A stretch of 64,000 nt of DNA from positions 4,000,001 to 4,064,000 of the forward strand of contig OZ253462.1 of NCBI GenBank assembly GCA_965261395.1. The letters run 5' to 3'. Source of the DNA: Candidatus Latescibacterota bacterium (lineage in GTDB: Bacteria; Latescibacterota; UBA2968; UBA8231). The translations under genes and the position numbers were made by a program. This document shows positions 1,255 through 61,888 of this stretch, piece by piece (position 1 is the first letter of the stretch; each line of letters begins with the position of its first letter). The notes beneath the pieces are model-generated. The model was not told the origin of the DNA. It saw only the letters and a program-made list of their open reading frames with translations, and ran no database searches.

Positions 1255-3294
1255 ATGAATGAATACCAGATGGTAAAAAATGGACTCACGAGTAACTGGC
1301 GTGACCAGATTCTCCGCGAATTCACGCCCAACGTAGCCCGTCTGACACTGGTCGCCGACCCTGACGGGCTACTTTTGGAAGAAGGCATTCTTGCGGGCAT
1401 ACGCGAGCGAGGATTTGAACTGATTCCGTTCGAGGATCATATCGCCTTTCGGTATGCCTACGAGACCAAGTTCCGTTCCCGTTGGGATCGAGGCGAGCAA
1501 ACAGAACTGGTGGTCGTACTGCACTCCGAGGCCCGTGACCTTAATAGCTTGCCATACGACCTGCTTCAGGCTGGTCGTCGGCTGTCATTCAGCTTGGGCG
1601 AGATTTTCCCCAACCTGAGCTATCCGGTTGTGGCCGCCTTGGACCGGCGAGACTTGGACGCGCTGGACGATGCCCAAGAGCAGTACGCGCCCGATGTGCT
1701 GGGAGACAACGCGACCATAAAATTTGTCCTGCGGCATGTCTTCGATATTGAGCCTGAACTCATCAAGGAGCCATCCGATTTGTTGCGCGTGCTGCTGCGC
1801 CGCCATCACCGAGAACAGCGGGTTCCGGCTTTGTTGGACGAGCGATTTGTCCAGTTGCTTCGCCAGCAGCATGGCTTTGAAGACTGGCCACTCGAAACGA
1901 TCATTTCAGACCGGCAGGCATTTTTCGCCTTTCTCCAAGAACGCTGGCCCATTTTTCTCGACCGGGCAGCGAGCGAAGAAGGTCTCGGCGTTCGGGAGCG
2001 CACGGAACCTTATGCTTTAGAGTTTTCCGGCCCTACGGATTTGCCATTCGATCACGACGATATCCGTATTTATATAGACAACCTGTTTCTTGAAGGACTG
2101 CTTGAAGCCGTTCCATACGAACAGGCCGAATCGTTGTCAAAGCCTTGGCTCGTTATTGGCATCCGAAGGGATGAGCAGGCGGACCGAGAGCGCCGCGTGG
2201 ATGGCCTGCTCTGCACTTTGGCCTCCACTATTCCGCAAGAGGATGCACAACACGACGATTGGTTCCGCTTTGCCAAGACTTGGGCCGAACTGGTGGCCTT
2301 ATCTATGGAATCGGATGCGATTTTGCCAGAGCCTGTACGTCAAAAGATGGAGACGTTGCAAGCACGAATTGACGATGCACTTGTATCTTGGCTGGCAAAC
2401 CGCTATGCGGGATTGAGCAGTCTGCCGCCAGTTCCGCCGGTCATGCTGCACCACATTCCCCGTTTCCTTGCTAGGCATGTCAAGGATGCCAAGGAACACA
2501 AGGTGGCGTTCGTCCTAGTAGATGGCCTTTCGCTAGATCAGTGGATCGTCGCCCGCAAGGAGCTTGCCAAGCAACGCCCCGAGTACCGTTTCCGAGAGCA
2601 CGCGGTGTTTGCTTGGATACCCACCATCACCTCGGTTTCGCGCCAGGCAGCCTTTGCCGGCAAGCTACCTAGCTACTTTCCAAACAGTATTGACACCACG
2701 AACAAGGAGCCAGCCTTATGGACGAAATTTTGGGTGGACCAAGGGCTGACACAGCAAGAAGTCGGATATGCCAAAGGGCTTGGGGACGGTGCACTGGATC
2801 GCGTAGAGGAGATGATTGCTCGACCACGGATGCGCGTCGTTGGTTTGGTTGTTGACAAAGTAGATAGGATCATGCACGGCATGGAGCTTGGCACTGCGGG
2901 GATGCACAATCAAGTTCGGCAGTGGGCCAATCAACCGTTCATGGGGAACCTCATTGACCTGTTGCTGGATAATGGATTCCGCGTCCACCTATCTTCGGAT
3001 CATGGAAACATCGAAGCCGCCGGATGCGGGCGACCTACCGAGGGCGCAGTTGCAGACCAGCGTGGTGAACGGGCGCGCGTGTACTCCAATTCAGTGCTGC
3101 GGGGCCGAGTCAAAGAGCGATTCCTTGACGCCTTGGAATGGCCGTCGATTGGGCTGCCGGAAGACTATTTACCTCTACTGGCTCCTGGCCGTTCTGCATT
3201 CGTCCATGAGGGCGAACGCCTTGTCGGCCATGGTGGCGCATCGCTTGAAGAACTCATTGTCCCCTTTGTGCAGATCGACAGGAGGGGGCCATGA
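1255..3294 (+). CDS. pglZ: BREX type 3 phosphatase PglZ
   Basis: N-terminal WRDQILREF...LVADPDGLL; alkaline-phosphatase-fold motifs VLVDGLS, PTITSVSR, SSDHGN, GHGG; exact start uncertain. Confidence 0.93.
   Translation: MNEYQMVKNGLTSNWRDQILREFTPNVARLTLVADPDGLLLEEGILAGIRERGFELIPFEDHIAFRYAYETKFRSRWDRGEQTELVVVLHSEARDLNSLPYDLLQAGRRLSFSLGEIFPNLSYPVVAALDRRDLDALDDAQEQYAPDVLGDNATIKFVLRHVFDIEPELIKEPSDLLRVLLRRHHREQRVPALLDERFVQLLRQQHGFEDWPLETIISDRQAFFAFLQERWPIFLDRAASEEGLGVRERTEPYALEFSGPTDLPFDHDDIRIYIDNLFLEGLLEAVPYEQAESLSKPWLVIGIRRDEQADRERRVDGLLCTLASTIPQEDAQHDDWFRFAKTWAELVALSMESDAILPEPVRQKMETLQARIDDALVSWLANRYAGLSSLPPVPPVMLHHIPRFLARHVKDAKEHKVAFVLVDGLSLDQWIVARKELAKQRPEYRFREHAVFAWIPTITSVSRQAAFAGKLPSYFPNSIDTTNKEPALWTKFWVDQGLTQQEVGYAKGLGDGALDRVEEMIARPRMRVVGLVVDKVDRIMHGMELGTAGMHNQVRQWANQPFMGNLIDLLLDNGFRVHLSSDHGNIEAAGCGRPTEGAVADQRGERARVYSNSVLRGRVKERFLDALEWPSIGLPEDYLPLLAPGRSAFVHEGERLVGHGGASLEELIVPFVQIDRRGP
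1288..1368 (+). repeat. 81-bp direct repeat copy 1 (pglZ 5' end), partner at 9173-9253
   Basis: 76/81 identical by manual alignment, last 52 bp identical. Confidence 0.95.
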
Positions 3295-4037
3295 ACGGCC
3301 GGCAAGCCCAGATTGGCTTCAGTCAACGTATCCGACTTGAGTGGTTCGAGCAGACAGCTAATATGATACTGGCTGGAAACGATAAGACTGCCATCAACGA
3401 CTCTCTGCAAGCTCTTCTGGAAGATAAGATCTCAGTAGGCGGTCAGGCCGTCAGAGGCGGCAGGGAGAAAGTGATTACCATCCTGTTGAAGACTTGGTTG
3501 ACCGTACCTCGTGAATTAGAGACGCTGCGGGACGAGGGCTTGGACATCTTCCAGAGGCTACCTCGTAAAGAACGCATTGTTATTCACTGGGGCATGGTCT
3601 TGGCAGTCTATCCGTTTTGGGGTGCAATCGCCGCTGATACTGGCAGGCTTCTACGCCTACAGGGCACAGCCGCAGCAGCCCATGTTCAGCGACGGGTCAA
3701 GGAGCAATACGGAGAGCGCGAAGCCGCGTCACGGGCTGCCCGGCGTGTGCTTCGATCATTCATCGATTGGGGAGTTTTGAACGAGACGGGGGACAAAGGC
3801 GTCTATGCCCAAGGGGAACAGTACTCCGTTGAGGAACCTAGGCTTATCGCCTGGCTAATGGAGGCGTCTCTCCGCTCCCGTGTGCATAGGGCTGCCGCCA
3901 TTAAGGATCTGCTCGAAAGTCCAAGCATCTTTCCGTTTCAATTAGCCCACATCTCAGCCGAGCAGGTGGCGTCCCTATCCCCTCGCTTAGACATCCTACG
4001 ACACGGTCTGGATGACGATCTGGTGATGCTACCGTGA
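3291..4037 (+). CDS. brxA: BREX type 3 BrxA-like protein
   Basis: ATGA overlap with pglZ, ~250 aa, IGFSQRIRLEW N-terminus, canonical position after pglZ. Confidence 0.75.
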   Translation: MNGRQAQIGFSQRIRLEWFEQTANMILAGNDKTAINDSLQALLEDKISVGGQAVRGGREKVITILLKTWLTVPRELETLRDEGLDIFQRLPRKERIVIHWGMVLAVYPFWGAIAADTGRLLRLQGTAAAAHVQRRVKEQYGEREAASRAARRVLRSFIDWGVLNETGDKGVYAQGEQYSVEEPRLIAWLMEASLRSRVHRAAAIKDLLESPSIFPFQLAHISAEQVASLSPRLDILRHGLDDDLVMLP

Positions 4038-4116
4038 CTACCGGACAAGTCCCCAAGTCCACTTCAGCGATACCAGACAACGGATAAGGGCGAACCAACT
4101 TCGGAGATAGGTAGTC

Positions 4117-4494
4117 ATGTCGAGACTCGAAACACCCCTCACACGACGCTATTGGCGAGAGATCGGCGGCACCCTGATAGAGGAGTTCCCGGCCGTCCGT
4201 TCTGGCCCGAATCAAGGTAGGAGATTGCTTGATGGCGTCGTGCTCTTGGATTCTCCACACTTGATTGCGAACCATCGGGAAGTTGAAATCGAGAATCGAG
4301 ATATTGTGGTGATTCAAACAAAGGCCAGCCGACTGGGCATGTATCTCCTGGGTCAGGCGCTATTCTCGCGACATCTGATGATGCCGTTTCGGCCCAGTAG
4401 CGTAGACACGGTTGCAATTTGCACCAAAGGTGATGCCGTGCTGGAACCTTTGGCTGCGGAATATGGAATAAAGGTGGTGGTGTACCAGGACTAA
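4117..4494 (+). CDS. Small hypothetical protein, PD-(D/E)XK-like
   Basis: RBS GGAG upstream; LDGV...IQTK...GQAL pattern. Confidence 0.55.
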   Translation: MSRLETPLTRRYWREIGGTLIEEFPAVRSGPNQGRRLLDGVVLLDSPHLIANHREVEIENRDIVVIQTKASRLGMYLLGQALFSRHLMMPFRPSSVDTVAICTKGDAVLEPLAAEYGIKVVVYQD

Positions 4495-4712
4495 CTCAGC
4501 AGGCGTGCCGAGGTCTTGTCGGTCTCTTCGGCCTGCACGCTCGGGGCTTGGTGCGATACGGATTGAGGTAGCGACAGGCCATCAAACCGTATTGGGAGTC
4601 CTGCCGAAGAAGCCGCAAACCCTCTTCAGGGAGCTTGTCCGGCCCGTGCGAGCGTTTATCGCCTTGACAGAGAGTCCAAAAAAGAGGCTTTATTTTCCTT
4701 ATACTCGATAAG

Positions 4713-4931
4713 GTCGAGCATCGCGGCCAAGCGGAAAACGGCCAGGCGGCAGTGGAGATCATCATGGCCATGTACGAGTCGGCGCGACTACACGAGGTGC
4801 CCGCGCTGCCTTTGCGGACGATGGCTTCACCGCTGGAAGTGATGATCGAGGCAGGAGATTTGCCGGTAGAGCGCCCAGGCCGCTACGACATCCGCGCCTT
4901 CCTGCTGCGCGGCGAGGATATGCAGCCTTAG
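4713..4931 (+). pseudogene. 3' fragment of a Gfo/Idh/MocA-family oxidoreductase
   Basis: Reads VEHRGQAENGQAAVEIIMAMYESARLHEVPALPL...GRYDIRAFLLRGEDMQP*; no start; GC-rich like the host core genes. Confidence 0.7.
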
Positions 4932-4967
4932 AACCAGACGAAAATTGAAACCCACAGGAGAAAGGTA

Positions 4968-5024
4968 ATGGCGGACTCTCTTGCCGATCAGATCATGAGA
5001 AAGGTCGGGCCGGCCGCCAGTCTA
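4968..5024 (+). pseudogene. brxF: 5' stub of BREX-3 brxF
   Basis: Strong RBS, then MADSLADQIMRKVGPAASL, resembling BrxF N-termini; breaks before the Walker A. Confidence 0.6.
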
Positions 5025-5026
5025 AA

Positions 5027-5125
5027 GCTGTCGCGGGAAAAATCCCGGAGACGATCCTCCAAGAGGATTCTAAACTCCTCATGTGGTATGACCAAGCAAT
5101 AACACGAATGGGAGATGAGGCATGA
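5027..5125 (+). pseudogene. pglXI: 3' stub of BREX-3 methyltransferase pglXI
   Basis: Different frame reads AVAGKIPETILQEDSKLLMWYDQAITRMGDEA*, matching the BREX-3 methylase C-terminus as I recall it; stop overlaps the next ATG. Confidence 0.7.
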
Positions 5126-7890
5126 AAGAGTGGGGCTGGAACGGTGCGCGTTGGTGGAAGTGTGATTTTCACACGCATACCCCGGCATCCAACGATTATG
5201 GGAAGGGCCAGAAGCAGACGGCTCTTCAGGAGCGATCCCCCAAGGAATGGCTGCTCGACTACATGCGTGCCGGCGTTGATTGTATTGCGATCACAGACCA
5301 TAACACCGGGGCGTGGATCGACGTACTGCGAAACGCCATGGAAGAGCTGATAGAGGATGGCCATTCAGATTACCGCAAACTGTATATTTTTTCTGGAATG
5401 GAAATCTCTATATCTGGCGGAATCCATTTGCTTGCGATTTTCGATCCTTCAAAGACATCTTCGGACCTTGACGCCCTTCGAGGCGCAGTGGAGTATGGAG
5501 GAACGCCGGGGCAAAGCGATGACGTCACACGCAAGGCGTTCGTCGACGTAATCAACACAGTCACTTCAGCCGGAGGTATAGCGATCCCTGCTCACGTGGA
5601 TGAGGAAAGTGGGCTTTTTCATCGACAGAAGGGGAATACACTAGATCAGGCATTGAACTGCAAAGATATCTTCGCCATGGAGTTGGTGGACCCAGCGTCT
5701 GAGAAACCACAGCTTTATATTGACAAAGGCCTACGCTGGGCTGAAATCCTTGGTTCAGACTCCCATCATCCTTCCGGTGTCGCGGGACAGTCATATCCGG
5801 GCAGCCACTTTACTTGGGTCAAGATGGGGTCGCCCAGCGTGGAGGGATTGCGGTTAGCCTTGTTGGACGGAGAGCTTTCCGTACGTCGGTCCGACCAGGA
5901 TACGGATGACCCAAACGAACACGCACCGTTGGTGTTGGATTCTATTGAGGTTTCGCAAGCGCGCTACATGGGTTGCTCCCAAATCTTCACTATTGGGTTC
6001 AACCCATGGTTCAACGCTATCATCGGAGGCCGAGGCACAGGTAAATCGACTGTTGTCGAGTTCCTTCGTACTGCCCTTCGACGGGAGGCTGAATTGCCGG
6101 AGACGTTGCAACCGGAGTTCGAACAGTATAACCGAGTCTATCAAGACCGAGAAGACAGCGGACTGCTTACAGAAGATGCTGCCATCCGAGTGATTTGCCG
6201 AAAAGACAGCGACCGGTTTCGCGTCCAGTGGAATAAGGCCGGCGGCCTTGAACCTATTGAACAAGAAGTGAATGGACAATGGCAGCGCGCAGAAGGCGAT
6301 ATTCAGCAACGATTTCCCGTGCGAATCTACAGTCAGAAGCAAGTGTTCCAACTCGCCAGAACTCCGCTTGCGTTGCTTAAAAATATCGATGAGGCCCCAG
6401 AGGTTGGTTACCATTCTTGGTCTGAAAAATGGAAAGTGCAGGAAAGCCGCTTTCTTTCTCTGCGTGCTAAGGCTAGAGAAATCAAGGTCGGTCCTGGCGA
6501 GGAGCAGCGTCTTCGGGGAGAGCTGGACGACGTGGAACGAAAACTGGCGATTTTTGAACAGTCGGGACACACCGAAATCCTAAAGTCCTTCCAAAAACGG
6601 AAACGCCAGCAGCGGGATGTCGAGGTATGGGAAGAAAGCTGGACTGGCGTGGGAGAGCAGTTGCGCGAAGTCGCGGCTGAAATAGTACCGGATCTGCTGG
6701 ATGAAACTTCTTTCGACTCAGATGCAGCGTCAGACAATGAATTGCAGAGACGTGCTGCTAAGACGCACGACCATCTAAACAAAATCCGCAAAGCGGTCGA
6801 AGTGCTTGCATCGCAAGCGGATGACATTGTCATCGAGTGGCAGAAAAGCAGGGATGAGTCGTCTTGGAAACAGAGCGTTGAGGCTGCCGCGCAAGCCTAC
6901 CAGGAATTGACAGAGAATCTGTCCCGAGAAGGGGCTGGCGACCCTGCGGCCTACGGCGAACTTGTACAGCGTCGGCAAGTCATTGAGCAACGGCTTTCGG
7001 AAGTGGACGAACGTAAAAAACAGGTTGATGATCTGAATAATCAGGCAGATGCACACTTGCAGCATTTGCTGGAAATTCGCCGGGAGTTGACGGCGTCTCG
7101 TCGATCATTTCTCAATTCCGTCCTAAGCGACAACCCATATATCCAGATACAGGTCGCCCCTTATGGTGCCCGCGAGACGGTCGAAAGCGAGTTTCGCCGA
7201 TTGCTCCAAAGAGAGGATGGGACGTTTGAGAAAGACATTGGATCGCCGAATGACGGGGGATTGCTTGGCGAACTTTATGAGCAGGATGCCGGTGCCGAGG
7301 TGATTGAAGAGAATCTTTTGAACATCAAGACCCGTGTCACAGAGATCGCGTTGGGTGAATACGGCACGGGAACAGTGGCAGATCGGCGTTTTGCCAACCA
7401 TGTAGGCAATCTCCCGCCTGAAGCTATTGATCGCCTTGACCTGTGGTTTCCAGAGGATTCTTTAGAGGTCCAATACAGCGCAAGGGGCGATGGACAGCGT
7501 TTTCGCTCAATACAAGAAGGTTCGCCTGGTCAGAAGACCGCAGCGCTCTTGGCGTTTCTGCTTTCCTACGGAAACGAACCACTGATCTTAGACCAGCCGG
7601 AGGACGATTTGGACAACCACCTGATCTACGGTTTGATCGTGACCCAATTGCGGGCGATCAAACGCCGTCGGCAGGTCATTGTGGTCACGCACAACGCGAA
7701 TATAGCCGTCAACGGTGACGCCGAATTGGTAGTAGCCCTCACAGCACGCGGCAGGGAAACGCAGAAAGAGTGCGAAGGCAGCCTGCAAGAGCAACAGGTG
7801 AGAGAGACCATTTGTGCAGTGATGGAGGGTGGTCGTAAGGCCTTTGAGGATCGGTATCGCCGCATTGCGCTGGAAGGACGCTATGTTTAA
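5122..7890 (+). CDS. PHP phosphoesterase fused to SMC/ABC-like ATPase (Ppl/TrlF-like defence protein)
   Basis: PHP motifs DFHTH, ITDHN, PAH, GSDSH; Walker A GGRGTGKS, coiled coil, SPGQ, ILDQPEDDLD, VTHN. Confidence 0.88.
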   Translation: MKEWGWNGARWWKCDFHTHTPASNDYGKGQKQTALQERSPKEWLLDYMRAGVDCIAITDHNTGAWIDVLRNAMEELIEDGHSDYRKLYIFSGMEISISGGIHLLAIFDPSKTSSDLDALRGAVEYGGTPGQSDDVTRKAFVDVINTVTSAGGIAIPAHVDEESGLFHRQKGNTLDQALNCKDIFAMELVDPASEKPQLYIDKGLRWAEILGSDSHHPSGVAGQSYPGSHFTWVKMGSPSVEGLRLALLDGELSVRRSDQDTDDPNEHAPLVLDSIEVSQARYMGCSQIFTIGFNPWFNAIIGGRGTGKSTVVEFLRTALRREAELPETLQPEFEQYNRVYQDREDSGLLTEDAAIRVICRKDSDRFRVQWNKAGGLEPIEQEVNGQWQRAEGDIQQRFPVRIYSQKQVFQLARTPLALLKNIDEAPEVGYHSWSEKWKVQESRFLSLRAKAREIKVGPGEEQRLRGELDDVERKLAIFEQSGHTEILKSFQKRKRQQRDVEVWEESWTGVGEQLREVAAEIVPDLLDETSFDSDAASDNELQRRAAKTHDHLNKIRKAVEVLASQADDIVIEWQKSRDESSWKQSVEAAAQAYQELTENLSREGAGDPAAYGELVQRRQVIEQRLSEVDERKKQVDDLNNQADAHLQHLLEIRRELTASRRSFLNSVLSDNPYIQIQVAPYGARETVESEFRRLLQREDGTFEKDIGSPNDGGLLGELYEQDAGAEVIEENLLNIKTRVTEIALGEYGTGTVADRRFANHVGNLPPEAIDRLDLWFPEDSLEVQYSARGDGQRFRSIQEGSPGQKTAALLAFLLSYGNEPLILDQPEDDLDNHLIYGLIVTQLRAIKRRRQVIVVTHNANIAVNGDAELVVALTARGRETQKECEGSLQEQQVRETICAVMEGGRKAFEDRYRRIALEGRYV

Positions 7891-9139
7891 CAGCCCGGAA
7901 GAACTGTTGCAGAAGATACGCCTTGGAGAAGATACTTCGCTGGAACTCAAGGCCGTCCGGTTCAGGGGCGACCGGGTTTCCGGTCCTGGTCGCGATGAGT
8001 TGGCCGACGAGTTGGCAGCTATCGCCAATACTCACGACGGTGTACTTGTCTTGGGCGTAGACGACAAGACGCGAGACATCATAGGCATTCCGATAGACCA
8101 CCTTGATGCTGTCGAAAGCTTTGTCTATGAGATTTGCAATGAGAGCATCACGCCGCCAGTCCATTTTCGTTCTTTCCGTATGCAGCTCCCTGATGCCACG
8201 GGGAATCTCCGGTCCGTGCTCAACGTAGAAATCCCACGCAGCCTTTTTGTCCACAGGAGCCCTGGAGGATATTTCTTTCGGCAAGGAAGTTCAAAACGAG
8301 AGATGCCGCCCGATTATCTGACACGGCTGTCCCAGCAACTAAGCCAAGTTCGGCTGATTCGATTCGAGGAACAATCCGTGCCGCAATCGAGCAGGGACGA
8401 CTTATCCGAAAAGTTGTGGGCCAACTATATAACAAGATCTGATGAATCCGCGGGTATCGTGCTCCTTAAACGCGGTCTTTTGTCGAAGGAAGAAAGCGGG
8501 GCCGTCCGGGCTTCGGTTGCTGGCATTCTGGTCTGTTGCGAGGAGCCAGAGCGTTTTTTGCCTAATGCCTATATTGAAGCCGTGCGCTATCGCGGAAAAA
8601 AGCGGGATTCCAATTATCAGATAGACGCCCAAAAAATTCGCGGCCCGCTGAATCGACAGATCGAACAAGCTATGACCTTTCTCAGGAAAAACCAGACGGT
8701 CTCAGCCGTAAAAATTCCGCATCGGGTCGAAGTGCAGCAGTTCAGCGAAAGAGCGGTTTTTGAAGCGATTGTCAATGCTGTGGCTCACCGCGATTATTCC
8801 ATTTTCGCCTCGAAAATACGGTTCTTCATGTTTGAAGATCGGTTGGAAATCTACTCGCCAGGTACTCTCCCGAATACCGTGACCATTGACAGCATCTCCC
8901 TCCGTCAGGCTACCCGAAACGAACTGATTACCAATCTGCTTACAGAGACGCCAGTGGCGGGAACGGTCGGCGATGTGGGACGTAGTTTTTACATGGAAAA
9001 GCGAGGCGAGGGTGTTCCAATCATTTTTGACGAGAGCGAAAAACTTTCCGGAAAGAAGCCTGTTTATCGACTTATTGACGACTCCGAACTGCTACTGACC
9101 ATTTTTTCGAGGGGCACGGAACGTGCGGATGAGCACTGA
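7883..9139 (+). CDS. AlbA_2 (Schlafen-like) + HATPase_c_4 domain protein
   Basis: GEDTSLELK, AIANTHDGVLVLGVDD, EAIVNAVAHRDY, EIYSPG; overlaps upstream stop. Confidence 0.88.
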   Translation: MFNSPEELLQKIRLGEDTSLELKAVRFRGDRVSGPGRDELADELAAIANTHDGVLVLGVDDKTRDIIGIPIDHLDAVESFVYEICNESITPPVHFRSFRMQLPDATGNLRSVLNVEIPRSLFVHRSPGGYFFRQGSSKREMPPDYLTRLSQQLSQVRLIRFEEQSVPQSSRDDLSEKLWANYITRSDESAGIVLLKRGLLSKEESGAVRASVAGILVCCEEPERFLPNAYIEAVRYRGKKRDSNYQIDAQKIRGPLNRQIEQAMTFLRKNQTVSAVKIPHRVEVQQFSERAVFEAIVNAVAHRDYSIFASKIRFFMFEDRLEIYSPGTLPNTVTIDSISLRQATRNELITNLLTETPVAGTVGDVGRSFYMEKRGEGVPIIFDESEKLSGKKPVYRLIDDSELLLTIFSRGTERADEH

Positions 9140-9172
9140 TGTAAGCGGTCGGTATTTAGGATCGGATGCACG

Positions 9173-9253
9173 ATGAGTAACTGGCGCAACCAGATTCTTC
9201 ACGAATTCACGCCCAACGTAGCCCGTCTGACACTGGTCGCCGACCCTGACGGG
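9173..9253 (+). pseudogene. pglZ: 5' stub of a second pglZ (direct repeat copy 2)
   Basis: ATG start, MSNWRNQILHEFTPNVARLTLVADPDG, then homology stops abruptly. Confidence 0.92.
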
Positions 9254-53600: not shown

Positions 53601-54788
53601 ATGGAACACTTGTTGGACGGCGTGCAGGTGCTCGACTTGACGCGGGTTTTAGCCGGGCCGTACGCGTCTATGGTGTTGGCCGACTTGGGTGCGGAAGTGA
53701 TCAAGATCGAGCTGCCGGGCACGGGCGACGAGGCGCGGGGGTTCGGGCCGTTCCAAAACGGCGAGAGCGCGTACTTTGCCAGCGTCAACCGCGGCAAAAA
53801 AAGCGTGACGATCGACTTGCGACAGGCACAGGGTCAGGACTTGGCGCGGCGTTTGGCTGGCGAGTGCGATGTGTTGATTGAGAACTTTCGTCCCGGCAGC
53901 ATGGATCGCTTTGGGTTGGGGTACGCGGCCCTGCACGCGCTGTATCCGCGCTTGGTGTACGCGTCGATCTCGGGTTTTGGCCAAACCGGCCCGTACGCGC
54001 AGCGGCCCGCGTACGACGTGCTCATTCAGGCGATGGGGGGGCTGGCCAGCATCACCGGGCAGCCCGACGGTCCGCCCGTGCGGGTCGGCTCGTCGATTGC
54101 CGACTTGAGCGCGGCTCTCTTTGGAGCCATTGGCATCCTCGCGGCCTTGGAGCGGGCACGGCGCACCGGCGAGGGGCAGCAAGTCGATATTTCCATGCTC
54201 GACTGTCAGGTAGCCCTGCTGGAAAACGCCCTCGCCCGCTACGCTGTATCCGGCGAAGTGCCCAAGCCGCTCGGGTCGCGGCATCCGGCCATTACCCCTT
54301 TCCAGTTCTTCGCCGCCCGCGATGGGTACATTGTCATTGCCGCGGGCAACGACCGGCTCTGGCGTCAGCTCTGCGACGCCTTGGGCTTGAGCGCATTGGC
54401 CGACGATCCGCGCTTTGCCAACAATGCGCTGCGCACCGAGAACCACGCGGCATTGGAGCCGATTTTGGAACAGGTGCTGGTCGAGAAAACCGTTGATGAG
54501 TGGTGCGCCATACTAGCTGCGGCCGGCGTGCCGAGCGGGCCGTTGTGCGATGTGGAGCAGGTCTTTGGCGATGAGCAGGTGGCGGCGCGGGAGATGATTG
54601 TCGAGCTGGAGCACCCGGTCGCGGGTCGGCAGACAGTGGCCAACTCGCCGCTGCGGTTTTCCGCGACGCCGGTCGAGTTGCGCGGGCCAGCGCCCTTGTT
54701 GGGGCAGCATACCGAGGAGGTCTTAAGCGGCGTCTTGGGGGTGACGGAAGGGGAGATGGCGGCGTTGCGGGCTGAGGGGGTGATATGA
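53601..54788 (+). CDS. CaiB/BaiF family CoA transferase
   Basis: VLDLTRVLAGP, NRGKKS, ENFRPG, YD. Confidence 0.94.
   Translation: MEHLLDGVQVLDLTRVLAGPYASMVLADLGAEVIKIELPGTGDEARGFGPFQNGESAYFASVNRGKKSVTIDLRQAQGQDLARRLAGECDVLIENFRPGSMDRFGLGYAALHALYPRLVYASISGFGQTGPYAQRPAYDVLIQAMGGLASITGQPDGPPVRVGSSIADLSAALFGAIGILAALERARRTGEGQQVDISMLDCQVALLENALARYAVSGEVPKPLGSRHPAITPFQFFAARDGYIVIAAGNDRLWRQLCDALGLSALADDPRFANNALRTENHAALEPILEQVLVEKTVDEWCAILAAAGVPSGPLCDVEQVFGDEQVAAREMIVELEHPVAGRQTVANSPLRFSATPVELRGPAPLLGQHTEEVLSGVLGVTEGEMAALRAEGVI
54701..54788 (+). repeat. 88-bp repeat copy 1 (CoA transferase 3' end), partner 59264-59351
   Basis: 77/88 identical by manual alignment. Confidence 0.93.
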
Positions 54789-54839
54789 GGGCGGGGAGTG
54801 CTTGGCTGCGCCTTGGTTGCTGCTGGATATGCTGCGACC

Positions 54840-55258
54840 TAACGGAAATCGGTGGCTGCCTCGAAGCATTTGTTGTAAAAAATGGCTTGGGCGAAACCTA
54901 TGCGGCCGGGACCGGCTTCATTATTGACACCGCGCCCGATACGGTCCGTGCGCCCGACGTCAGCTTTGTGTCGCGGGAACGCGCTGAGGCTACCGCAGAA
55001 GAACGAGGTTTTTTCCCCGGCGCACCCGACCTCGCCGTTGAAGTCATTTCGCCCAATGATCGATACAGCGAGATTGAAGAAAAAGTGTCCGACTGGCTGC
55101 GGGCGGGTACGCAGATGGTCGTTGTGATAGACCCCCACCAACGCACCGCAACGGTTTACCGCGCACCCGACGATATTTGTATTCTCACCGAAGGCGACAT
55201 GCTCGACGGCGGCGATGTAGTGCCTGGGTGGAAAATGGCTCTTGCAGACGTATTCTAA
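54840..55258 (+). pseudogene. 5'-truncated Uma2 family endonuclease
   Basis: RAPDVSF and PDLAVEVISP present; N-terminal EL..GE...P...H segment missing. Confidence 0.65.
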
Positions 55259-55418: not shown

Positions 55419-57068
55419 TCAGATCGGAAGGGGCAACTGCTCTTCCTCGACAGCCCTCTTCATCCAAGTGTTGAACTGCGTATTCACAAGGCCATAGTGG
55501 TTTTCCAACTCTGATTTTTCGATAGACCCGTTGGCAAGTCGTTCTTGGAGCGACTGAATAAAGTGCCCGTACAGGTCAGAGATGCCAGACGGTTCCTGTG
55601 GGCTGGTGTGCTCGGGCTGTTGGTTCAAACTAAGCATCACCGGCTTCGACTCCGCGACCACGTTTTCCTCGACAGCCCTCTTCATCCAAGTGTTGAACTG
55701 CGTATTCACAAGGCCATAGTGGCTTTTCAACTCTGATTTTTCGATAGACCCATTGGTAAGCCGTTCTTGGAGCGACTGAATAAAGTGCCCGTACAGGTCA
55801 GAGATGCCAGACGGTTCCTGTGGGCTGGTGTGCTCGGGCTGTTGGTTTAAACTAAGCATCATCGGCTTCGACTCCGTGACCACGTTTTCCTCGATAGCTC
55901 TCTTCATCCAAGCGTCGAACTGCGTTTTCACAAGGCCATAGTGGCTTTCCAACTCTGATTTTTTGATAGACCCATTGGCAAGCCATTCGCGGAGCGACTG
56001 AATGAAGTGCCCGTATAGGTCAGAACTCTGCTCCTGCGGCCTAGTGTACTCGGGCTGTTCCGAGACGTTTCCAGCACCAGAAGGAGCGGTCCCTACTTCA
56101 GTGTCTGCATATAAGGAGTCGTCCTCTATTTGCCCTGATGAGGCGGCTGATTGATCCGAGACACAAATCTGCTGGATTACCTCCTGCGGAGGACCTTGTG
56201 CTTGATGGACGCTTAAAAGGGCCGTATTGCCGGGGGAACCATCGCTGTCTTGGCGGACCCAGATTGGTACCCATTGTCTCTTCATATTCTCAATGGCACC
56301 TTCCCAAGTGCCACCTTTTATACCGGAATGAACAACTAACGCTCTGTCGGACAGGCAGTAGATGTACTTATTCCTTTGCATGGCTCTGCCGACGGTGAAG
56401 CCTGCCTCGGGGTTAAATGGCGAGACCAGCACTAGATTCTGAGACCGCAGATAGGATCGGTACATCTTACTTGACGACGCGCGTAGCAGGCTGTCCGCAA
56501 GAATGCCGACAACAGTGCCTTCCCTGTCCAGTGCCCCGAACATCGCGGCTTGGTCAATCCCCTTCGCTCCGCCCGATACGACGGAGTAACCGGCACCAGC
56601 CACAGCCTCGCCGAACGCCTGAGTCCAAGAAAGATCGCGATCCGAAGCCGCTCGAGAGCCGACGACTGCGATTCCTCTAGAACGCAGCAACTTTTGGTGG
56701 CCGCAGCCGTACAGCACTGGGGGGGATGCTTGGCCGAGCCGCTTCTTTAGGTGGACTGGATAGTCATCGTCAGCGCTCGTCAGCCACCACAAGCCAGCTT
56801 GTGCCCACCTATCCTTGGCAAGCCCCAAGGCACTTCCTCGATCTAGAAGTCTTTTGATCCTCTCCGTAGTTCCCCTAGGGTCGGACCTGCCTCCCAAGAC
56901 TTCATCCACATTCTCTAAGAGGTATTCTATGGTTGCATTCCGTTCCTTGAGCCAATTTGCAAATGCCCACCATTCTTCCGTCGTTAAGGGTTTCGCTCCG
57001 CCGTCATCAGAGCCGGAAAGGTGCGCCGTCAGGAGCAGCACCGCATCGCTATTGCCAGATGTAGCCAT
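55419..57068 (-). CDS. DprA/Smf-family protein with triplicated C-terminal domain
   Basis: YP..L, PPVLY, AVVGSR, VSGGAKGID, RNKYI, GGT. Confidence 0.9.
   Translation of the reverse strand: MATSGNSDAVLLLTAHLSGSDDGGAKPLTTEEWWAFANWLKERNATIEYLLENVDEVLGGRSDPRGTTERIKRLLDRGSALGLAKDRWAQAGLWWLTSADDDYPVHLKKRLGQASPPVLYGCGHQKLLRSRGIAVVGSRAASDRDLSWTQAFGEAVAGAGYSVVSGGAKGIDQAAMFGALDREGTVVGILADSLLRASSSKMYRSYLRSQNLVLVSPFNPEAGFTVGRAMQRNKYIYCLSDRALVVHSGIKGGTWEGAIENMKRQWVPIWVRQDSDGSPGNTALLSVHQAQGPPQEVIQQICVSDQSAASSGQIEDDSLYADTEVGTAPSGAGNVSEQPEYTRPQEQSSDLYGHFIQSLREWLANGSIKKSELESHYGLVKTQFDAWMKRAIEENVVTESKPMMLSLNQQPEHTSPQEPSGISDLYGHFIQSLQERLTNGSIEKSELKSHYGLVNTQFNTWMKRAVEENVVAESKPVMLSLNQQPEHTSPQEPSGISDLYGHFIQSLQERLANGSIEKSELENHYGLVNTQFNTWMKRAVEEEQLPLPI
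55443..56059 (-). repeat. 222-bp tandem repeat, ~2.8 copies, within dprA-like gene
   Basis: Same anchor at 55443, 55665 and 55887; 74-aa unit. Confidence 0.95.
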
Positions 57069-57069: not shown

Positions 57070-59160
57070 TCAACCTCCTATGCCCGCTGTTGCCAGTCCT
57101 ACGGGATAAACTAAGCCGCTTCCGGAGCGCCGGAGGAGCGCCGCCAGAACAGTCATCGTCCAGCGTGAATCGACTACATCGTCAACGAGTAGGACGGGCG
57201 AAGCTGGAACTCTGCCGACGACTTTGAACGCGCCGTCGAGATTTCGGCACTGATGGAAGGTGTTCGCCTGCTGTTTCTGTGGCGGGCAGTCTCGTACTTT
57301 CTGGATCACATCGCAGAACGGTAGTTTGAGCTTATCTGCCAAGCGTCGTGCGAAATCAGGAACTAGGGCTGGGCACCGAAGCGATGGAACGCAGGTAACC
57401 CATTCCACAGGCGAGTCGGGCTGCCATCGCTCTCGGACCATTTCAGCCACTGCGCGGACAAGCTCGTCCCGGAAGTGCTCAGATTCCTTGTCTGCGGCGA
57501 CGACCGCGCCCCAGCCGGCATCTCCCCACTGGGACAGAATTCGCCCCTCCGACGCCTGTAGCTCCGGTACTAAGCGGTCATCAGGGAACCCGTAGGTCGG
57601 CAGCACTCCTTTGCGGATGCTCTTTCTCGGCTCGAACGGCAGTTCCGATCTGCGCAGAAAACGGACCGCTTCCACCTCTAGTTCGTGCTCGACTGTGATT
57701 GAGATCACAGGCTTTCCCATGCAGTTCGCGCACTTGCCGCATCTCTCGACTGCGGGATCGTCTAGCATGTGTCCGAGGTATTCCATGAAGCAGTTGTCGG
57801 TATCTACGTACTCCTGGAACTCTTGCCACTCGCGTTCCCTCTGGCCAGAAAGTCGATGAATGCGCTCCCGGTCCAACTCGAATTCGGCTGCGGTTCGGTG
57901 CCATTTTGGACCGATCTTTATGGCAGGTGAAGGAACTTCGACGCTGAGGACCTTCAGTACCTGCTCAATCTGGCTCTGGCGCATGTTTAGCTGGTTCTGT
58001 AATTCAATGATAGACTGGCCATCAGAGTCTTCCAATGCATAGAGTACCTTCTCAACCGTACGTTCTGGTGGAAAGGCTGTTCTCCGAAAGTAGTCGTGAA
58101 TCTGATCATCTTCCTCTCCCGCGAGCAGGATCCCAACGGCGCTAGGGATGGCCCGGCCGGCTCTGCCTACCTGCTGGTAGTAGGCGACGACGGAACTAGG
58201 AGCCTGATAGTGGATGACGAAGCTGAGGTCTGGCTTGTCGTATCCCATGCCTAAGGCCGTGGTAGCGACTAGGACCTTGATCTCGTTGTTTAGTAGCATG
58301 CCTTCCAGTCGGCGGCGTTCATCGTGGCCAGCTTGGCCCTGAAGACCCGCATGGTAGGCCCGAGCTGAAATGCCATGCCGAGACAGCCAAGCGGCAACCT
58401 GTTCGGCGTCACGCTTGGTAAGTACGTACACTATGCCACTGCCAGGGATCTGCGGAATTGATTGGGCAAGCCACGCTAGGCGCGAGGCTTGATTGTCGAG
58501 CCTTATGGTTTGGAGCGAAAGCGAGTGACGAGAGAGCGGGCCGCGCTGGATTTGGAAATGAGCTAGCTGCGTCTTAATATCGCCAATCACCCGGTCGTTA
58601 GCAGTTGCGGTCGTGCCGAGGACCGGCGTATTACGCGGAAGCATTCTCAGCACGTTAGTCAAGCGCCGGTAATCAGGCCGGAAGTCATGGCCCCAGTCGG
58701 AAATACAATGCGCCTCGTCCACAACGAGCAGACCGATACGATCTGCGATCTTCATCAGTGTGCTCTGGCGGAAGTTTTCGTTAGCGAGCCGTTCGGGTGT
58801 TATCAGCAAGGCATCGATCTGATCGTTAATCACGTCCGTGATGATGGCGTCCCAGTCATCGCGATTGGACGAGTCGATTGATGCGGCGCGTATTCCGAGT
58901 CGCTGCGCCGCCTCAACCTGATTTCGCATCAGAGCGAGCAGCGGCGATACGATGATGGTTGGGCCGCGACCTGCGTCTCGGAAGATTCTCGTGGTGACGA
59001 AGTACACGGCACTCTTGCCCCAGCCCGTCCGTTGCACTAGGAGCAGCTTGGCTCTCCGATTCGACACGGCATCAATCGCTTCCCATTGCCCAGCCCTGAA
59101 CCGCGCATCGGAGTTGCCCACAGCTATCTGTAGAAGCCTCTCCGCTTGTTGTCTATTCAT
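57070..59160 (-). CDS. RecQ-family helicase with C-terminal PRTase-like domain
   Basis: TGWGKS, DEAHCISDWGHDFRPDY, QVGRAGR, Zn motif CGKCANC, LLVDDVVDSRWT. Confidence 0.93.
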   Translation of the reverse strand: MNRQQAERLLQIAVGNSDARFRAGQWEAIDAVSNRRAKLLLVQRTGWGKSAVYFVTTRIFRDAGRGPTIIVSPLLALMRNQVEAAQRLGIRAASIDSSNRDDWDAIITDVINDQIDALLITPERLANENFRQSTLMKIADRIGLLVVDEAHCISDWGHDFRPDYRRLTNVLRMLPRNTPVLGTTATANDRVIGDIKTQLAHFQIQRGPLSRHSLSLQTIRLDNQASRLAWLAQSIPQIPGSGIVYVLTKRDAEQVAAWLSRHGISARAYHAGLQGQAGHDERRRLEGMLLNNEIKVLVATTALGMGYDKPDLSFVIHYQAPSSVVAYYQQVGRAGRAIPSAVGILLAGEEDDQIHDYFRRTAFPPERTVEKVLYALEDSDGQSIIELQNQLNMRQSQIEQVLKVLSVEVPSPAIKIGPKWHRTAAEFELDRERIHRLSGQREREWQEFQEYVDTDNCFMEYLGHMLDDPAVERCGKCANCMGKPVISITVEHELEVEAVRFLRRSELPFEPRKSIRKGVLPTYGFPDDRLVPELQASEGRILSQWGDAGWGAVVAADKESEHFRDELVRAVAEMVRERWQPDSPVEWVTCVPSLRCPALVPDFARRLADKLKLPFCDVIQKVRDCPPQKQQANTFHQCRNLDGAFKVVGRVPASPVLLVDDVVDSRWTMTVLAALLRRSGSGLVYPVGLATAGIGG

Positions 59161-59161: not shown

Positions 59162-59245
59162 CTAAATACCTAGCGAAGCGAATAAAACAGCGTCAAGCTC
59201 AAGTGGGAGGAGAACCCATATCGGCGCTCGCTACAGTGCACAAGG
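59162..59245 (+). repeat. Degenerate copy of the upstream region and 5' end of gene 61523-61888 (partner 61471-61550)
   Basis: Shared AAAACAGCGTCAAGC, GAGGAGAA, TCGGCGCT..CTACA.TGC..AAGG; ATG changed to ATA. Confidence 0.8.
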
Positions 59246-59263
59246 GGCGCAGCTCACGGGCGC

Positions 59264-59351
59264 GGGGCAGCACACCGAGGAGGTCCTAAGCGGCGTCTTG
59301 GGGCTGACGGAAGGGGAGATAGAAGCGTTGCGGGCTGGGGGAGTAATATAG
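59264..59351 (+). pseudogene. 3' stub of a CoA transferase allele (repeat copy 2)
   Basis: Reads GQHTEEVLSGVLGLTEGEIEALRAGGVI*. Confidence 0.9.
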
Positions 59352-59373: not shown

Positions 59374-59778
59374 TTAGGCGCTCCAAAGCTCGGCTAAGGC
59401 TTTGAAGGCTTTGAAAGTGGATTCGGAGACGCCTTCGGTGTTTTCGGCTAAGGCTTCGGCACCTTCGGCGAAGCTTTCGAAGGCTTCGCCGATGTCTTCG
59501 GCGGATTTGGCTAAGGCGTCGAAGGCTTCGGCGACGTCCCCGCCGTATTCTTCACGGACGACTTCGGCGGTTTCGGCGACGCCTTCGACGTATTGGCGGG
59601 CACCTTTAGCGGCTTTCGCTAAGGCTTCGGCGTGTTGGCGGGCGTTTTCAGCTAAGGCTTCGACGCTTTCGTAGGTGGATTGAGCGATGGCTTCGGCTTC
59701 ACTGGCGGCTTCGGCGGCTTTTTCGCGGGCGTCGCCGGTGTCGAAAGCACGGGCTAAGCCCGTAAGAATGCGCTGCAT
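59374..59778 (-). CDS. Ala/Glu-rich helical hypothetical protein
   Basis: AAGGAG upstream; strongly periodic GCC GAA codons. Confidence 0.6.
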   Translation of the reverse strand: MQRILTGLARAFDTGDAREKAAEAASEAEAIAQSTYESVEALAENARQHAEALAKAAKGARQYVEGVAETAEVVREEYGGDVAEAFDALAKSAEDIGEAFESFAEGAEALAENTEGVSESTFKAFKALAELWSA

Positions 59779-59991: not shown

Positions 59992-60894
59992 TTATGGGTT
60001 GGATTGATAAGGCGCACCTGGAAACTCAAAATCAAACTTCGGATCAGTATCTACAGCACTCGTAAGTTGCTGCATTATCCCAATAATCGTCTTTCTGTGA
60101 TCACTCAGCAGCTTAGAAGGCTCACCATATAACCGAGATCTCACCATCACCTTTTCCAGCCTCCACAAATCTTCTTTATAGACCCAAACTTCAAATCCCG
60201 CTGCCTTAATTTTAGAGTTAGGGTCATGCTTAATACGGGGCCCGTTATCGTCCATACAACGACGATCCTTGAAAGAAGGATATGGCACAAGATATGGTGC
60301 TATAAATGGAATAAAATTGTGCATATAGGTATGGCGATGTAAGTTCACAGCACTCAACGTCTCCGCCTGCCAGTGCATACTAGTATAAGCAGGCTGTATT
60401 AAACGTATGCTTTTCTTCTGGTCGCAAGTTAGACCATGAAGACACTTTCTAGATAGAAACCCCTCCTGCTCCTCCTGCAGGTGGTTCAAGCAGAGGCCGT
60501 GCTCGTATACGATCTCGCAGCAGCGATCTATTCGGCATTCGGCGGGTGGCGGCTGGTTAAGTCTATCAACTACAGGAAACTCTGACCTTCTATACGGGGT
60601 ATTCCCATTCGCATACGCTAAGAATCGAACCAGATAGTCCAATGCAGATCGCAACTCAGACATCCCCTGACCGAATTTTTTTCCGATAATCCACAAAGCC
60701 TTGTAATCATCCAAGCTACTGAAATCAGGATACCTGCTCTCGATCTCTCCAAGCGTAAGGTCGTTTACTTCATCTAAGATTTTAGTGGCCACCTCTTCAC
60801 TCAACGTACTTATCTCGTCAATAAGCAAGCTCACAGACTTTATTTGCACTTCTATACTTGCATACTGTCTTCTCATCTTAAACGCATTATCCAT
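59992..60894 (-). CDS. AT-rich hypothetical protein
   Basis: 300-aa ORF, RBS AAGGAAG, LRSALDY motif, Cys/His cluster. Confidence 0.65.
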   Translation of the reverse strand: MDNAFKMRRQYASIEVQIKSVSLLIDEISTLSEEVATKILDEVNDLTLGEIESRYPDFSSLDDYKALWIIGKKFGQGMSELRSALDYLVRFLAYANGNTPYRRSEFPVVDRLNQPPPAECRIDRCCEIVYEHGLCLNHLQEEQEGFLSRKCLHGLTCDQKKSIRLIQPAYTSMHWQAETLSAVNLHRHTYMHNFIPFIAPYLVPYPSFKDRRCMDDNGPRIKHDPNSKIKAAGFEVWVYKEDLWRLEKVMVRSRLYGEPSKLLSDHRKTIIGIMQQLTSAVDTDPKFDFEFPGAPYQSNP

Positions 60895-60956
60895 TGGCTT
60901 CTTCCTTTATCTATGGACACTCGCGGGGATCGGTAGCCCAGAGGTCTTACATAGCC

Positions 60957-61103
60957 AAGCAGTTTTTCAAATGGGGGCGGCGTACAGAAAGGATTTTCTT
61001 TAAGCAGGTCTAACAGTTTTTCCGCTCGGGGCCGCAAGCCCGCCGCTTGGAGCTTCTTGGCGTCTCTCTGCGCTTGCCGGGTAAAGACTAGCTTCCAACT
61101 CAC
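60957..61103 (-). pseudogene. 3'-truncated Txe/YoeB toxin
   Basis: GTG start, SWKLVFTRQAQRDAKKL...PPPFEKLLG; the SRRI...HRLVY half is missing. Confidence 0.8.
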
Positions 61104-61342
61104 CAGTCGAGTTCCTCGGCACACTCCTCTACAGGCGTTTTCAGGCCCTCGATGATAGATTCACGCATTTTAGGAATGGCGAGCAGGTGCAGCGTCTCCT
61201 GAATTGAACGCCACTCGTCCTCGGCAATGAGCACCGCTGACCCTCGCTTGCTATGAATGCGAATAGGTTCTCTGCCTTCGGCCACTTGCTCTAGGAGCTT
61301 GTAGAGCTCAGAACGTACCTTGGTTACGTTGATCGTCGTCAA
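61100..61342 (-). CDS. Phd/YefM antitoxin
   Basis: R..LY.L, AVLI...W.SIQETLHLL.IP.MRESI. Confidence 0.88.
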   Translation of the reverse strand: MTTINVTKVRSELYKLLEQVAEGREPIRIHSKRGSAVLIAEDEWRSIQETLHLLAIPKMRESIIEGLKTPVEECAEELDW

Positions 61343-61522
61343 AGCTATGACCTATCGGGGCAAAAATTTGGCCAGGATTCCGGCCATGAGGTGAAGAATC
61401 TCTTTCTGTACCAGTGGCAATCGCCTTATACAATAGTAGTAGTATCTTGGATAGGGTCGTCTTTAGCGTGCTAAATATCGACGAGATTACAAAACAGCGT
61501 CAAGCCTAAGCAAGAGGAGAAG

Positions 61523-61888
61523 ATGTCGGCGCTTACTACAATGCGTAAGGTGTGCGGAGCGATAGTCTGCGCCGTGTTAATCGGGGGCTGTGCGCTGATC
61601 GCCGCGCCGGCTATATCCCCGGAACCCTCACCCCAAGCCGCGCAGCTTTTGGCTGTCGGCGACTACGTGGAGGCGCACCTGATGCGCCGCTTTGCCGAGG
61701 GGTACTTGTTGGTGCGGTTGCCGGACCGGGCCGTCTGGTTGCTCGACCCTAAAGAACATTGCTCCTGGTGCTGGATCTACGTCGGTAAGACGGTATGGGT
61801 CAAGCTGGGCAAGCGCTCGGCCACGCTGCTCAACTCCAAGGGCGAGACAGCCGAGTGTTGGAACGGCGGGCAGATGAGCGAGTACTAA
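61523..61888 (+). CDS. Hypothetical exported/lipoprotein
   Basis: RBS GAGGAG, signal ending IGGC, CxxC. Confidence 0.65.
   Translation: MSALTTMRKVCGAIVCAVLIGGCALIAAPAISPEPSPQAAQLLAVGDYVEAHLMRRFAEGYLLVRLPDRAVWLLDPKEHCSWCWIYVGKTVWVKLGKRSATLLNSKGETAECWNGGQMSEY

Follow-up and report, generated by a model that had tools for sequence, protein, structure and literature searches.

We analyzed 64,000 nucleotides (nt) of DNA (hereafter the window, meaning this whole stretch; bases 4,000,001-4,064,000) from the genome of a Candidatus Latescibacterota bacterium, which is a single contig of 6.55 Mb. Pfam and PADLOC searches show that five accessory islands break up the mostly metabolic gene content of the window. 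Island 1 (1-9.2 kb) is the tail of a type-3-like BREX locus, with PDC-S28-like, PglZ, and BrxA genes followed by genes for a Ppl-like ATPase and a Schlafen/AlbA_2 protein. Island 2 (11.6-14.8 kb) holds a leucine-rich-repeat (LRR) gene and a 293-aa open reading frame (ORF), island 3 (19.6-22.9 kb) HEC-01A and DUF4276 genes, island 4 (36-40.9 kb) an M78/HTH pair, a multiubiquitin-E1 operon, Uma2, and DUF2442, and island 5 (54.8-61.4 kb) Uma2, PsyrA/PsyrT, a repeat protein, and a Phd antitoxin pair. Three of the five islands carry short copies of gene ends, here called stubs; every stub is part of a gene terminus and is sited between cargo genes. These stubs, and the gene gain that they may record, are the subject of this report. 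The original prediction, made from the letters of the window alone, was that three hotspots contain short, diverged direct copies of neighboring gene termini, and a repeat search and self-BLAST recovered all of them at or near the predicted places.

The CoA-transferase hotspot (54.7-61.5 kb) lies between a CoA-transferase gene (53601..54788, + strand; Pfam CoA_transf_3) and a conserved downstream gene of 121 aa (61523-61888, +; 61491..61888 with its start region), the N-terminus of which, in our own reading, resembles a lipoprotein signal. The first set of cargo comprises an N-terminally short Uma2/PDC-S03 gene (54785-55258, +; Pfam), the PsyrA gene (55419-57068, -; Pfam; PADLOC E 2e-146), and the PsyrT gene (57070-59160, -; Pfam; PADLOC E 2e-293). 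The second set comprises a repeat-rich phasin-like ORF (59374-59778, -; Pfam), a 300-aa ORF (59992-60894, -), an 83-aa ORF (60873-61124, -), and a Phd/YefM antitoxin gene (61100-61342, -; Pfam), none of which has a PADLOC match. Two stubs separate the sets. The first (59184..59253, +) repeats positions -32 to +38 around the start of the downstream gene, with the start codon changed to ATA; its 59184-59245 part aligns with 61491-61550 over 62 nt (77%, E 5e-5), and the full pair 59184-59253/61491-61560 is 77% identical with a z score of 15.6 against shuffles. The second (59264..59349, +) is a copy of the CoA-transferase 3' end up to the stop codon (86 nt, 90%, E 1e-25), and the intact counterpart is the last 86 nt of the gene (54701-54786).

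Orthologues of the CoA-transferase gene were found in 22 of the 24 congeneric genomes searched (78-97% identity; many are single contigs); loci of relatives are given here by L numbers. L026 is an empty site, in which the downstream gene starts ~20 nt past the CoA-transferase stop codon, and the other 14 relatives' loci contain 1.4-12 kb of differing modules, with Uma2 in many of them. The PsyrTA module occupies this hotspot in L015, L017, and L019 and is bracketed by ~58-60-nt repeats in L017 and L019, while L016 and L020 are among the relatives that have their own stubs of the start of the downstream gene. Several features of the cargo are worth recording. The PsyrA-like C-terminal part includes three tandem 222-nt units (55443-56108; 96% and 66% identical to the first), the number of which differs among relatives, and in-frame 21-nt repeats (59421-59697) fill most of the 134-aa phasin-like ORF. 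The Uma2 gene (54785-55258) lacks ~37 N-terminal profile positions; because homology to the Uma2 modules of relatives begins at 54846, the first 60 nt of this ORF belong to another flank, common to L015 and L028.

The WelO5-like hotspot (11.6-14.9 kb) is anchored on a WelO5-like gene (14807..15657, -; Pfam WelO5), the 3' end of which (14807-14893) is the intact copy of two stubs. Stub 1 (13506..13546, -) is the last 41 nt of the gene including the stop codon (13506-13546/14809-14849: 41 nt, 88%, E 1e-6), and stub 2 (11564..11654, -) is the last ~85 nt, again including the stop codon (11592-11654/14831-14893: 63 nt ungapped, 95%, E 2e-21; gapped extension to 11564-11654/14807-14893). The cargo between the gene and stub 1 is a 293-aa ORF of no known family (13737..14618, +), a relative's copy of which is present in L091 (87.5%), and the cargo between stub 1 and stub 2 is an LRR protein gene (11827..13416, +; Pfam LRR), in which in-frame 21-nt repeats (12046-12171) encode an acidic EEEDEET-like run near the N-terminus. 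L083 and L085 show the empty form, in which the WelO5-like stop codon abuts a FAD-oxidoreductase gene, and L083 has the unit of stub and LRR gene on the opposite side of the FAD-oxidoreductase gene. Of the 12 relatives' loci, 8 contain between one and three additional WelO5-like gene-end copies, and in five of them (L081, L082, L083, L086, and L092) a copy directly follows the FAD-oxidoreductase gene. This gene itself would thus behave like an old cassette, since it is bracketed by WelO5-like gene-end copies in several relatives. The stop-codon end is preserved in every one of these WelO5-like end copies, and the inner end is variable (25-91 nt), with no fixed crossover core.

The BREX hotspot (1-9.2 kb) continues a locus in which PADLOC places BrxF, BrxC, and PglXI just upstream of the window. 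The window opens with the C-terminal part of a PDC-S28-like protein (1..1200, +; PADLOC PDC-S28 E 6e-36), which occupies the slot between pglXI and pglZ of the type-3-like BREX locus, followed by pglZ (1255..3294, +; Pfam PglZ; PADLOC PglZ E 0), brxA (3291..4037, +; PADLOC BrxA E 4e-100), and a 125-aa ORF cassette (4117..4494, +; no Pfam or PADLOC match) that adjoins the FAD-oxidoreductase/BNR gene in four relatives (L081, L084, L085, and L091; ~4039-4513, 94-95%). Two consecutive stubs then follow, and both have their intact source genes outside the window. The first (4710..5023, +) runs from the 3' end of a GFO-type gene (~222 nt) through intergenic DNA into the initial 58 nt of brxF, and the whole-genome scan matched it over 314 nt (94%) to genome positions 3989451-3989764, 10.5 kb upstream of the window. 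The second (5023..5125, +), directly upstream of the Ppl gene, is the pglXI 3' end (~100 nt, ~85% to genome 3998500-3998603). The cargo beyond them, a Ppl-like ATPase gene (5122-7890, +; PADLOC Ppl E 5e-143) and a Schlafen/AlbA_2 gene (7829-9139, +; Pfam SLFN_AlbA_2 and HATPase_c_4), is absent from the 14 relatives' loci compared. It is closed by a stub of the pglZ 5' segment (9166..9253, +), of which 1280-1368 is the intact copy (1290-1368/9175-9253: 79 nt ungapped, 95%, E 6e-29; gapped extension to 1280-1368/9166-9253).

The pglZ stub overlaps the end of the FAD-oxidoreductase/BNR gene (9207..11546, -; Pfam), which is conserved genus-wide. Homology of this gene ends at window positions 9251-9253 in all 14 relatives' loci compared. 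Its product ends in ...VPNTD* or ...VPNTG* in the five relatives translated and here in ...VP plus 14 foreign codons; these extra codons (9207-9253) are the antisense of the pglZ stub, and the gene's own last three codons are lost. On these alignments, the joint 9253/9254 is an illegitimate deletion scar. Because the order of the pieces is GFO end/brxF start, pglXI end, Ppl and Schlafen genes, and pglZ start, the remnants would fit a second BREX unit that was mostly deleted and reduced to its slot cargo. In relatives, the 4710-5023 sequence corresponds to the real GFO end, and its distance to the FAD-oxidoreductase gene is between 18 nt and a few kb. L080 is an empty site, with the GFO-type gene end 18 nt from the FAD-oxidoreductase end; L085 has a similar brxF/pglXI scar beside its real GFO-type gene; pglXI adjoins pglZ in L086; and L081, L084, L093, and L100 contain GFO-type gene-end stubs of their own. 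Microhomology at the brxF/pglXI deletion joint was considered and set aside as uninformative, TATAAT being present at both intact-copy breakpoints and absent from the joint.

No flank stubs were detected at the island of 19.6-22.9 kb or at that of 36-40.9 kb (z ≤ 0.9). The former includes a HEC-01A-type AAA_21 ATPase gene followed by a DUF4276 gene (19676-21648), a candidate two-gene defense pair, and in the latter (36068-40949) an M78 peptidase and HTH pair stands beside a multiubiquitin/135-aa/ThiF-E1 operon, followed by Uma2 and DUF2442. A further repeat in the window (24097-24139/29374-29416; 43 nt, 84%, E 5e-5) copies no gene terminus into a gap and may be a chance match.

We scanned the whole genome for direct repeats 0.15-20 kb apart with 11-mer seeds and ungapped X-drop extension, retained isolated pairs with a length of up to 450 nt and a spacing of 600 nt or more, and located these on an ORF map made with a self-trained caller. 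The caller is crude, overlooks some genes of atypical composition, and takes the longest ORFs, which makes the 5'-end classes unreliable. In 42 of the 226 local direct pairs, an intergenic copy corresponds to a gene 3' end, and in 11 to a gene 5' end. The same pipeline gives two 3'-end and five 5'-end pairs among local inverted repeats (n = 43), and one of each among direct repeats 200-220 kb apart (n = 25), so that the expectation of a genome-wide pattern held on self-comparison (42 3'-end stubs versus two and one in the inverted and distant controls). The direction is also regular: in 38 of the 42 3'-end pairs the copy lies beyond the intact stop codon with cargo enclosed between the two, and in 17 the repeat edge falls within 5 nt of the stop codon. 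The repeats are 39-380 nt long (median 87) and 0.7-12.9 kb apart, and the 53 intervals comprise 160 called genes and 203 kb (~3% of the genome, ~50 loci). Another 22 pairs between gene interiors and intergenic DNA might conceal 5' stubs. A stub of the other flank occurs at the junction in one of the 53 pairs (ungapped score of at least 40, a threshold with too low a sensitivity for the window's own case).

The enclosed genes differ from the rest in composition, with a native codon-pair score of 0.34 versus 0.48 (p 2e-10) and also a lower GC content. Defense or toxin-antitoxin domains are present in ~20 of the 45 stub regions outside the window by our own reading of the Pfam tables, and the prediction that the cargo is defense cargo therefore has to be widened, since defense alone does not describe it. 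The cargo includes PIN-MazE, AAA_15/21 ATPases, TIR-TPR proteins, methylases, caspase with Mrr, Fic, GmrSD, Hachiman, a CBASS set, a type I restriction-modification system, and AIPR; other cargo consists of ankyrin, WD40, or LRR proteins and of ordinary operons for metabolism or transport. Many islands are single genes of 1-3 kb. PhyH-family genes are frequent genome-wide, either as stub-bearing anchors or as cargo. All five sites compared are variable across ~30 congeneric genomes, and at four of them some relative shows an empty or nearly empty form. Empty sites are found in L026, L083/L085, L080, and L150-152 and, for the Hachiman site, in 14 of the 30 genomes. By codon-pair score, GC content, and the relatives' loci, the arrays thus enclose compositionally atypical genes that differ between species.

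The original prediction of hotspots that lack integrases, tRNAs, and a shared motif also stands. In the window, ARAGORN detects no tRNA, Rfam gives no RNA match, neither PF00589 nor PF00239 has a match, and no transposase is present among the ORFs scanned. A six-frame search of the 6.5-Mb genome finds no PF00239 (serine recombinase/resolvase) match and four PF00589 matches, one of them below the cut-off, at 3.61, 4.23, 5.68, and 5.76 Mb; one is a 333-aa tyrosine recombinase at 4226130. The three matches above the cut-off are 39-90 kb from any stub pair, the weak fourth is 7 kb away, and none is inside an island. The Pfam set for the stub regions comprised 204 proteins of 50 regions (45 of the 3'/5' classes outside the window, including the BREX upstream region, and five further strong pairs), and no integrase or resolvase family was found among them. 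Eight of the 50 regions have a transposase-like gene (IS5, DDE_3, UPF0236, or TnpB-type). For 41 stub-bearing genes, the terminal 100 nt together with the following 30 nt are the same as control gene ends in pairwise similarity, shared 8-mers, and folding energy, and show no shared motif. Two candidate agents were rejected at this point. A transposon does not fit the 42 regions without a transposase gene or the duplications of 39-380 nt, terminal inverted repeats not having been searched systematically. The Uma2 endonuclease was considered as an insertion enzyme, three of its six genomic copies lying directly after a gene-end copy, and this was set aside as evidence because single-gene cargo is often the first gene of an island and because PADLOC lists the family as candidate defense gene PDC-S03.

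The differences between stubs and intact gene ends resemble those between alleles. Over the 53 pairs, mismatches at codon positions 1, 2, and 3 number 124, 97, and 241 of 462 (chi-square p 3e-17), and this bias to third positions agrees with the original prediction; the differing codons comprise 197 synonymous and 265 nonsynonymous ones. The base of the stub is found in functional orthologues of relatives at eight of nine sites for the CoA-transferase stub, three of three for stub 2 of the WelO5-like gene, and two of five for stub 1. The functional CoA-transferase end is closest to those of L015 and L028 (3/86 mismatches), which are also the only relatives with the same sequence just past the CoA-transferase stop codon, and identity of the gene to L028 rises from ~90% to 96% in the last 120 nt, a sliding-window signal that is weak and based on small numbers.

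Two other sites hold young events. At the locus L069, a 3.0-kb gene lies between the copies of a perfect 50-nt duplication (50/50), where relatives have one copy and contiguous flanks, and this cargo is found elsewhere, without repeats, in four relatives. The Hachiman island is flanked by 224-nt repeats and is occupied in the genomes G022, G012, and G046. At this site in G012, the stub and the gene end have 0/110 mismatches, and the cargo is 93% identical to that of the source genome (G000), while the flanks are just 86-88% identical.

We favor, with moderate confidence, the reading that the stubs are recombination scars at integrase-free gene-gain hotspots, formed by sequential displacement through host recombination and by later deletions. 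This reading takes together what is observed at the loci, namely the anatomy of the stubs, their excess over the genome and their direction, the lack of integrases and motifs, the variability between species, and the allele-like differences; it fits the outer edges at stop codons, the irregular inner edges, and the absence of a recombinase and of a motif. A cassette would come from a relative or a conspecific donor and bring along a linked copy of the conserved flanking gene's 3' end. The incoming DNA would be anchored in the flanking gene by host homologous recombination, and its far end would form an illegitimate joint some tens to a few hundred bases before the stop codon of the resident gene. 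The gene would then be intact with a new end, and the old end would be shifted downstream as a stub attached to the older cargo. Repeats of this process would stack cassettes with the newest beside the gene, and recombination between stubs and illegitimate deletions could later reorder or trim the array. As for the enzymology, we infer RecA together with end-joining, in the manner of homology-facilitated illegitimate recombination, and how the DNA enters is likewise conjectural: ComEC is present and there are two full-length recA genes (genome positions 61827-62603, E 2e-132, and 1783324-1784094, E 2e-131), which, with Ku not found, do not settle it.

The original prediction proposed that alleles from relatives may be added in tandem by flank homology and then reduced by deletion. 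The integrase-free arrays across the genome, the allele-matching stubs (8/9, 3/3, and 2/5), and the BREX remnants uphold part of this model. The duplications, however, are mostly one-sided copies of 3' ends (42 vs 11) rather than trimmed tandems of whole loci, with other-flank stubs at 1/53 junctions, and the young events with identical repeats (50/50 nt in L069 and 0/110 in G012) fit less well with other species as the source of the alleles.

Several observations weigh against sequential displacement. The 42:11 bias of 3' over 5' ends is not predicted by the mechanism, and may stem in part from crude start calls. The third-position share of 52% is lower than expected for two long-functional alleles, a rough model of divergence in situ giving ~44% by our own arithmetic. 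The L069 cargo was found at that site in none of the 30 relatives searched, the Hachiman stubs are nearer to their own gene end than to the stub of the other species (8 and 10 versus 16 mismatches), and Ku was not found. The young identical repeats would be explained better by self-duplication of the resident end or by a donor of the same species than by an allele of a different species, with which the copies would be expected to differ; they require a conspecific donor, gene conversion, or true duplication of the target. As both allele-like stubs and identical young repeats are seen, it seems that both types of history occur, or that gene conversion homogenizes the repeats.

The alternative that survives best, which we regard as possible and yet rather unlikely as the main process, is RecA-dependent cycling of cassettes. 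Here, recombination between the repeats would loop out a circle consisting of the cargo and one gene-end copy, and a single crossover of the Campbell type would re-insert it at a homologous gene end in the same or a related genome, thereby recreating the repeats and permitting reordering. With 39-380 nt, the repeats have a length sufficient for homologous recombination, precise one-copy empty sites exist in relatives, and the unit of stub and LRR gene has different array positions in the window and in L083. Repeats within a genome are more alike than orthologous stubs, as expected for cycling within a species, and the junction 59184-59349, where a stub of the downstream flank is followed by a stub of the upstream gene, is what a closed circle of the whole unit would give. 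Cycling still requires an illegitimate event for the initial pair of repeats, however, and an other-flank stub is present at just one of 53 junctions. No circle or circle joint was seen in the contigs, which are unitig-like, and the reciprocal hybrids that cycling predicts with a diverged donor are beyond the resolution of 86-224 nt with 8-10 differences. Cycling may account for the reordering and the identical repeats and can coexist with displacement, and sequence data cannot separate the two.

We give less weight to a dedicated and unrecognized insertion mechanism by which 40-220 nt of the target in the recipient itself would be duplicated, for example by staggered nicks at gene 3' ends followed by fill-in, and consider it unlikely. 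The perfect 50-nt duplication in L069, with its one-copy empty site and with the cargo free of repeats elsewhere in four relatives, is what such a mechanism would leave, as are the 0/110 mismatches in G012 next to cargo 93% identical and flanks 86-88% identical to those of G000, and the strong 3'-end bias. It is opposed by the lack of a protein family common to the islands and of a target motif, by irregular repeat lengths, and by several stubs that bear the alleles of other species, and a conspecific donor or gene conversion explains the identical repeats equally well.

Still more doubtful is the view that the islands are remnants of site-specific integrative elements that target gene 3' ends and whose integrase was lost or acts in trans, in the manner of cis-mobilizable elements (CIMEs). 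Direct repeats from a gene 3' end with the newest unit beside the gene have the classic look of gene-end inserters, flanking direct repeats derived from a target 3' end do occur here, and the 333-aa tyrosine recombinase at 4226130 has no assigned role. However, the 204 proteins of the 50 regions include no integrase family (integrase-bearing relatives of the islands elsewhere were not searched for), and the genome has four PF00589 and no PF00239 matches, those above the cut-off being 39-90 kb away. The 41 target ends share no core or hairpin, copies at a single site differ in length (25-91 nt), many of the islands consist of just one gene of 1-3 kb, and the junction at 9253 cuts the neighboring gene.

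The assembly was checked with Logan contigs from four runs. Stub 1 is bridged without any other letter by contigs of two runs from two studies (X18, 12136-13592; X1, 12136-13600), and the cargo-side edge of stub 2 (11625-12096) is crossed by contigs of three runs from three studies. The listed contigs span neither 9166-9253 nor 4710-5125 nor the remaining stubs, and these uncovered parts say nothing either way. The empty joint 11463>14808 is present in three of the four runs, and related genomes therefore appear to co-occur, the same runs also containing the empty form. It is nevertheless highly improbable that the stubs are an assembly artifact in which strain alleles of a metagenome were joined in tandem, although the genome is probably a metagenome assembly and related forms are found in the same runs (the empty joint, in three), because the stubs are short and diverged rather than long identical overlaps, stub 1 is bridged in two studies and the edge of stub 2 crossed in three, homologous stubs are found in independently assembled relatives, some of them from short reads, and neither the direction nor the stop-codon register has an explanation in assembly.

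Sequential displacement, our preferred reading, can be set beside known systems. The minimal mobile elements of Neisseria are described as variable content between conserved genes exchanged by host homologous recombination (Saunders and Snyder, 2002; Snyder, 2007; both as treated in PMC3787668), and an account of transfer hotspots without integrases reports that half of bacterial gene-gain hotspots have no recognizable mobile elements (Oliveira et al., 2017; PMC5635113). As these accounts present them, such elements and hotspots share with the present loci fixed flanks, an absence of mobility genes, exchange among relatives, and frequent defense cargo. The gap between the CoA-transferase gene and the downstream gene, which ranges from ~20 nt to ~12 kb, is that of a hotspot, and the other two hotspots are likewise variable. 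In those systems as presented, however, a double crossover swaps the content and leaves no scar, whereas here units are added, with one-sided copies of 3' ends, at ~50 loci.

Another counterpart is found in the type VI secretion (T6SS) effector-immunity arrays of Vibrio cholerae and in the orphan 3' regions of Rhs and contact-dependent inhibition (CDI) loci, for which it is described that a new module entering by the conserved upstream gene displaces the old one downstream, an old 3' end included (Kirchberger et al., 2017; PMC5361080). The same article, in its account of these arrays, describes newest-first order without a known integrase, proposes homology-facilitated illegitimate recombination, and notes the likeness to integrons. 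The displaced units with a 3' remnant of the upstream gene at 11.5-14.9 and 54.7-61.5 kb resemble these arrays, with the order of ages inferred in our case. According to that account, the T6SS, Rhs, and CDI arrays are toxin-immunity loci in which the 5' part of the toxin gene serves as the anchor; the anchors here are, in contrast, metabolic core genes (an oxygenase, a CoA-transferase, and an oxidoreductase), and the cargo includes BREX parts, PsyrTA, and transporters.

Two further systems can be compared. Tandem accretion of CIMEs resembles the present arrays in that direct repeats of the target 3' end delimit stacked units, and differs in that here no integrase is found in cis or nearby, there is no common core, and the repeat length is irregular. 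The integron is alike in outcome: at a fixed site, small cassettes form an ordered stack in which the newest is at the entry and the order varies among relatives. Unlike an integron, the present arrays have no IntI, attI, or attC-like structure, their cassettes have both orientations, and the delimiters are copies of the ends of neighboring genes. A narrow literature search found no publication on such stubs in Latescibacterota, and we make no claim that they are absent from print.

The accepted explanation for hotspots of this kind, a double crossover in the flanks, swaps content and leaves the addition of new units unexplained. The scars described here come from a lineage in which integrases are almost lacking, and they tell the order, the direction, and in part the source of each gain. 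If they prove to be a general signature, they could serve as a cheap finder of hotspots and defense cargo in uncultured genomes and for the dating of gene gains. They would also form a natural data set on whether one-sided homologous recombination, which to our knowledge has so far been measured just in a few transformable laboratory species, builds defense islands in nature. A bolder proposition, which we regard as quite unlikely, is that this integrase-poor, sponge-associated genus gains its genes mainly by a regular capture process, in which promoter-to-terminator cassettes are placed just behind core genes with a duplication of 40-220 nt of the recipient's gene end and build up stacks that are reshuffled at those repeats. 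If true, this capture process would match the integron in function, either with no dedicated recombinase at all or with one that has so far escaped recognition.

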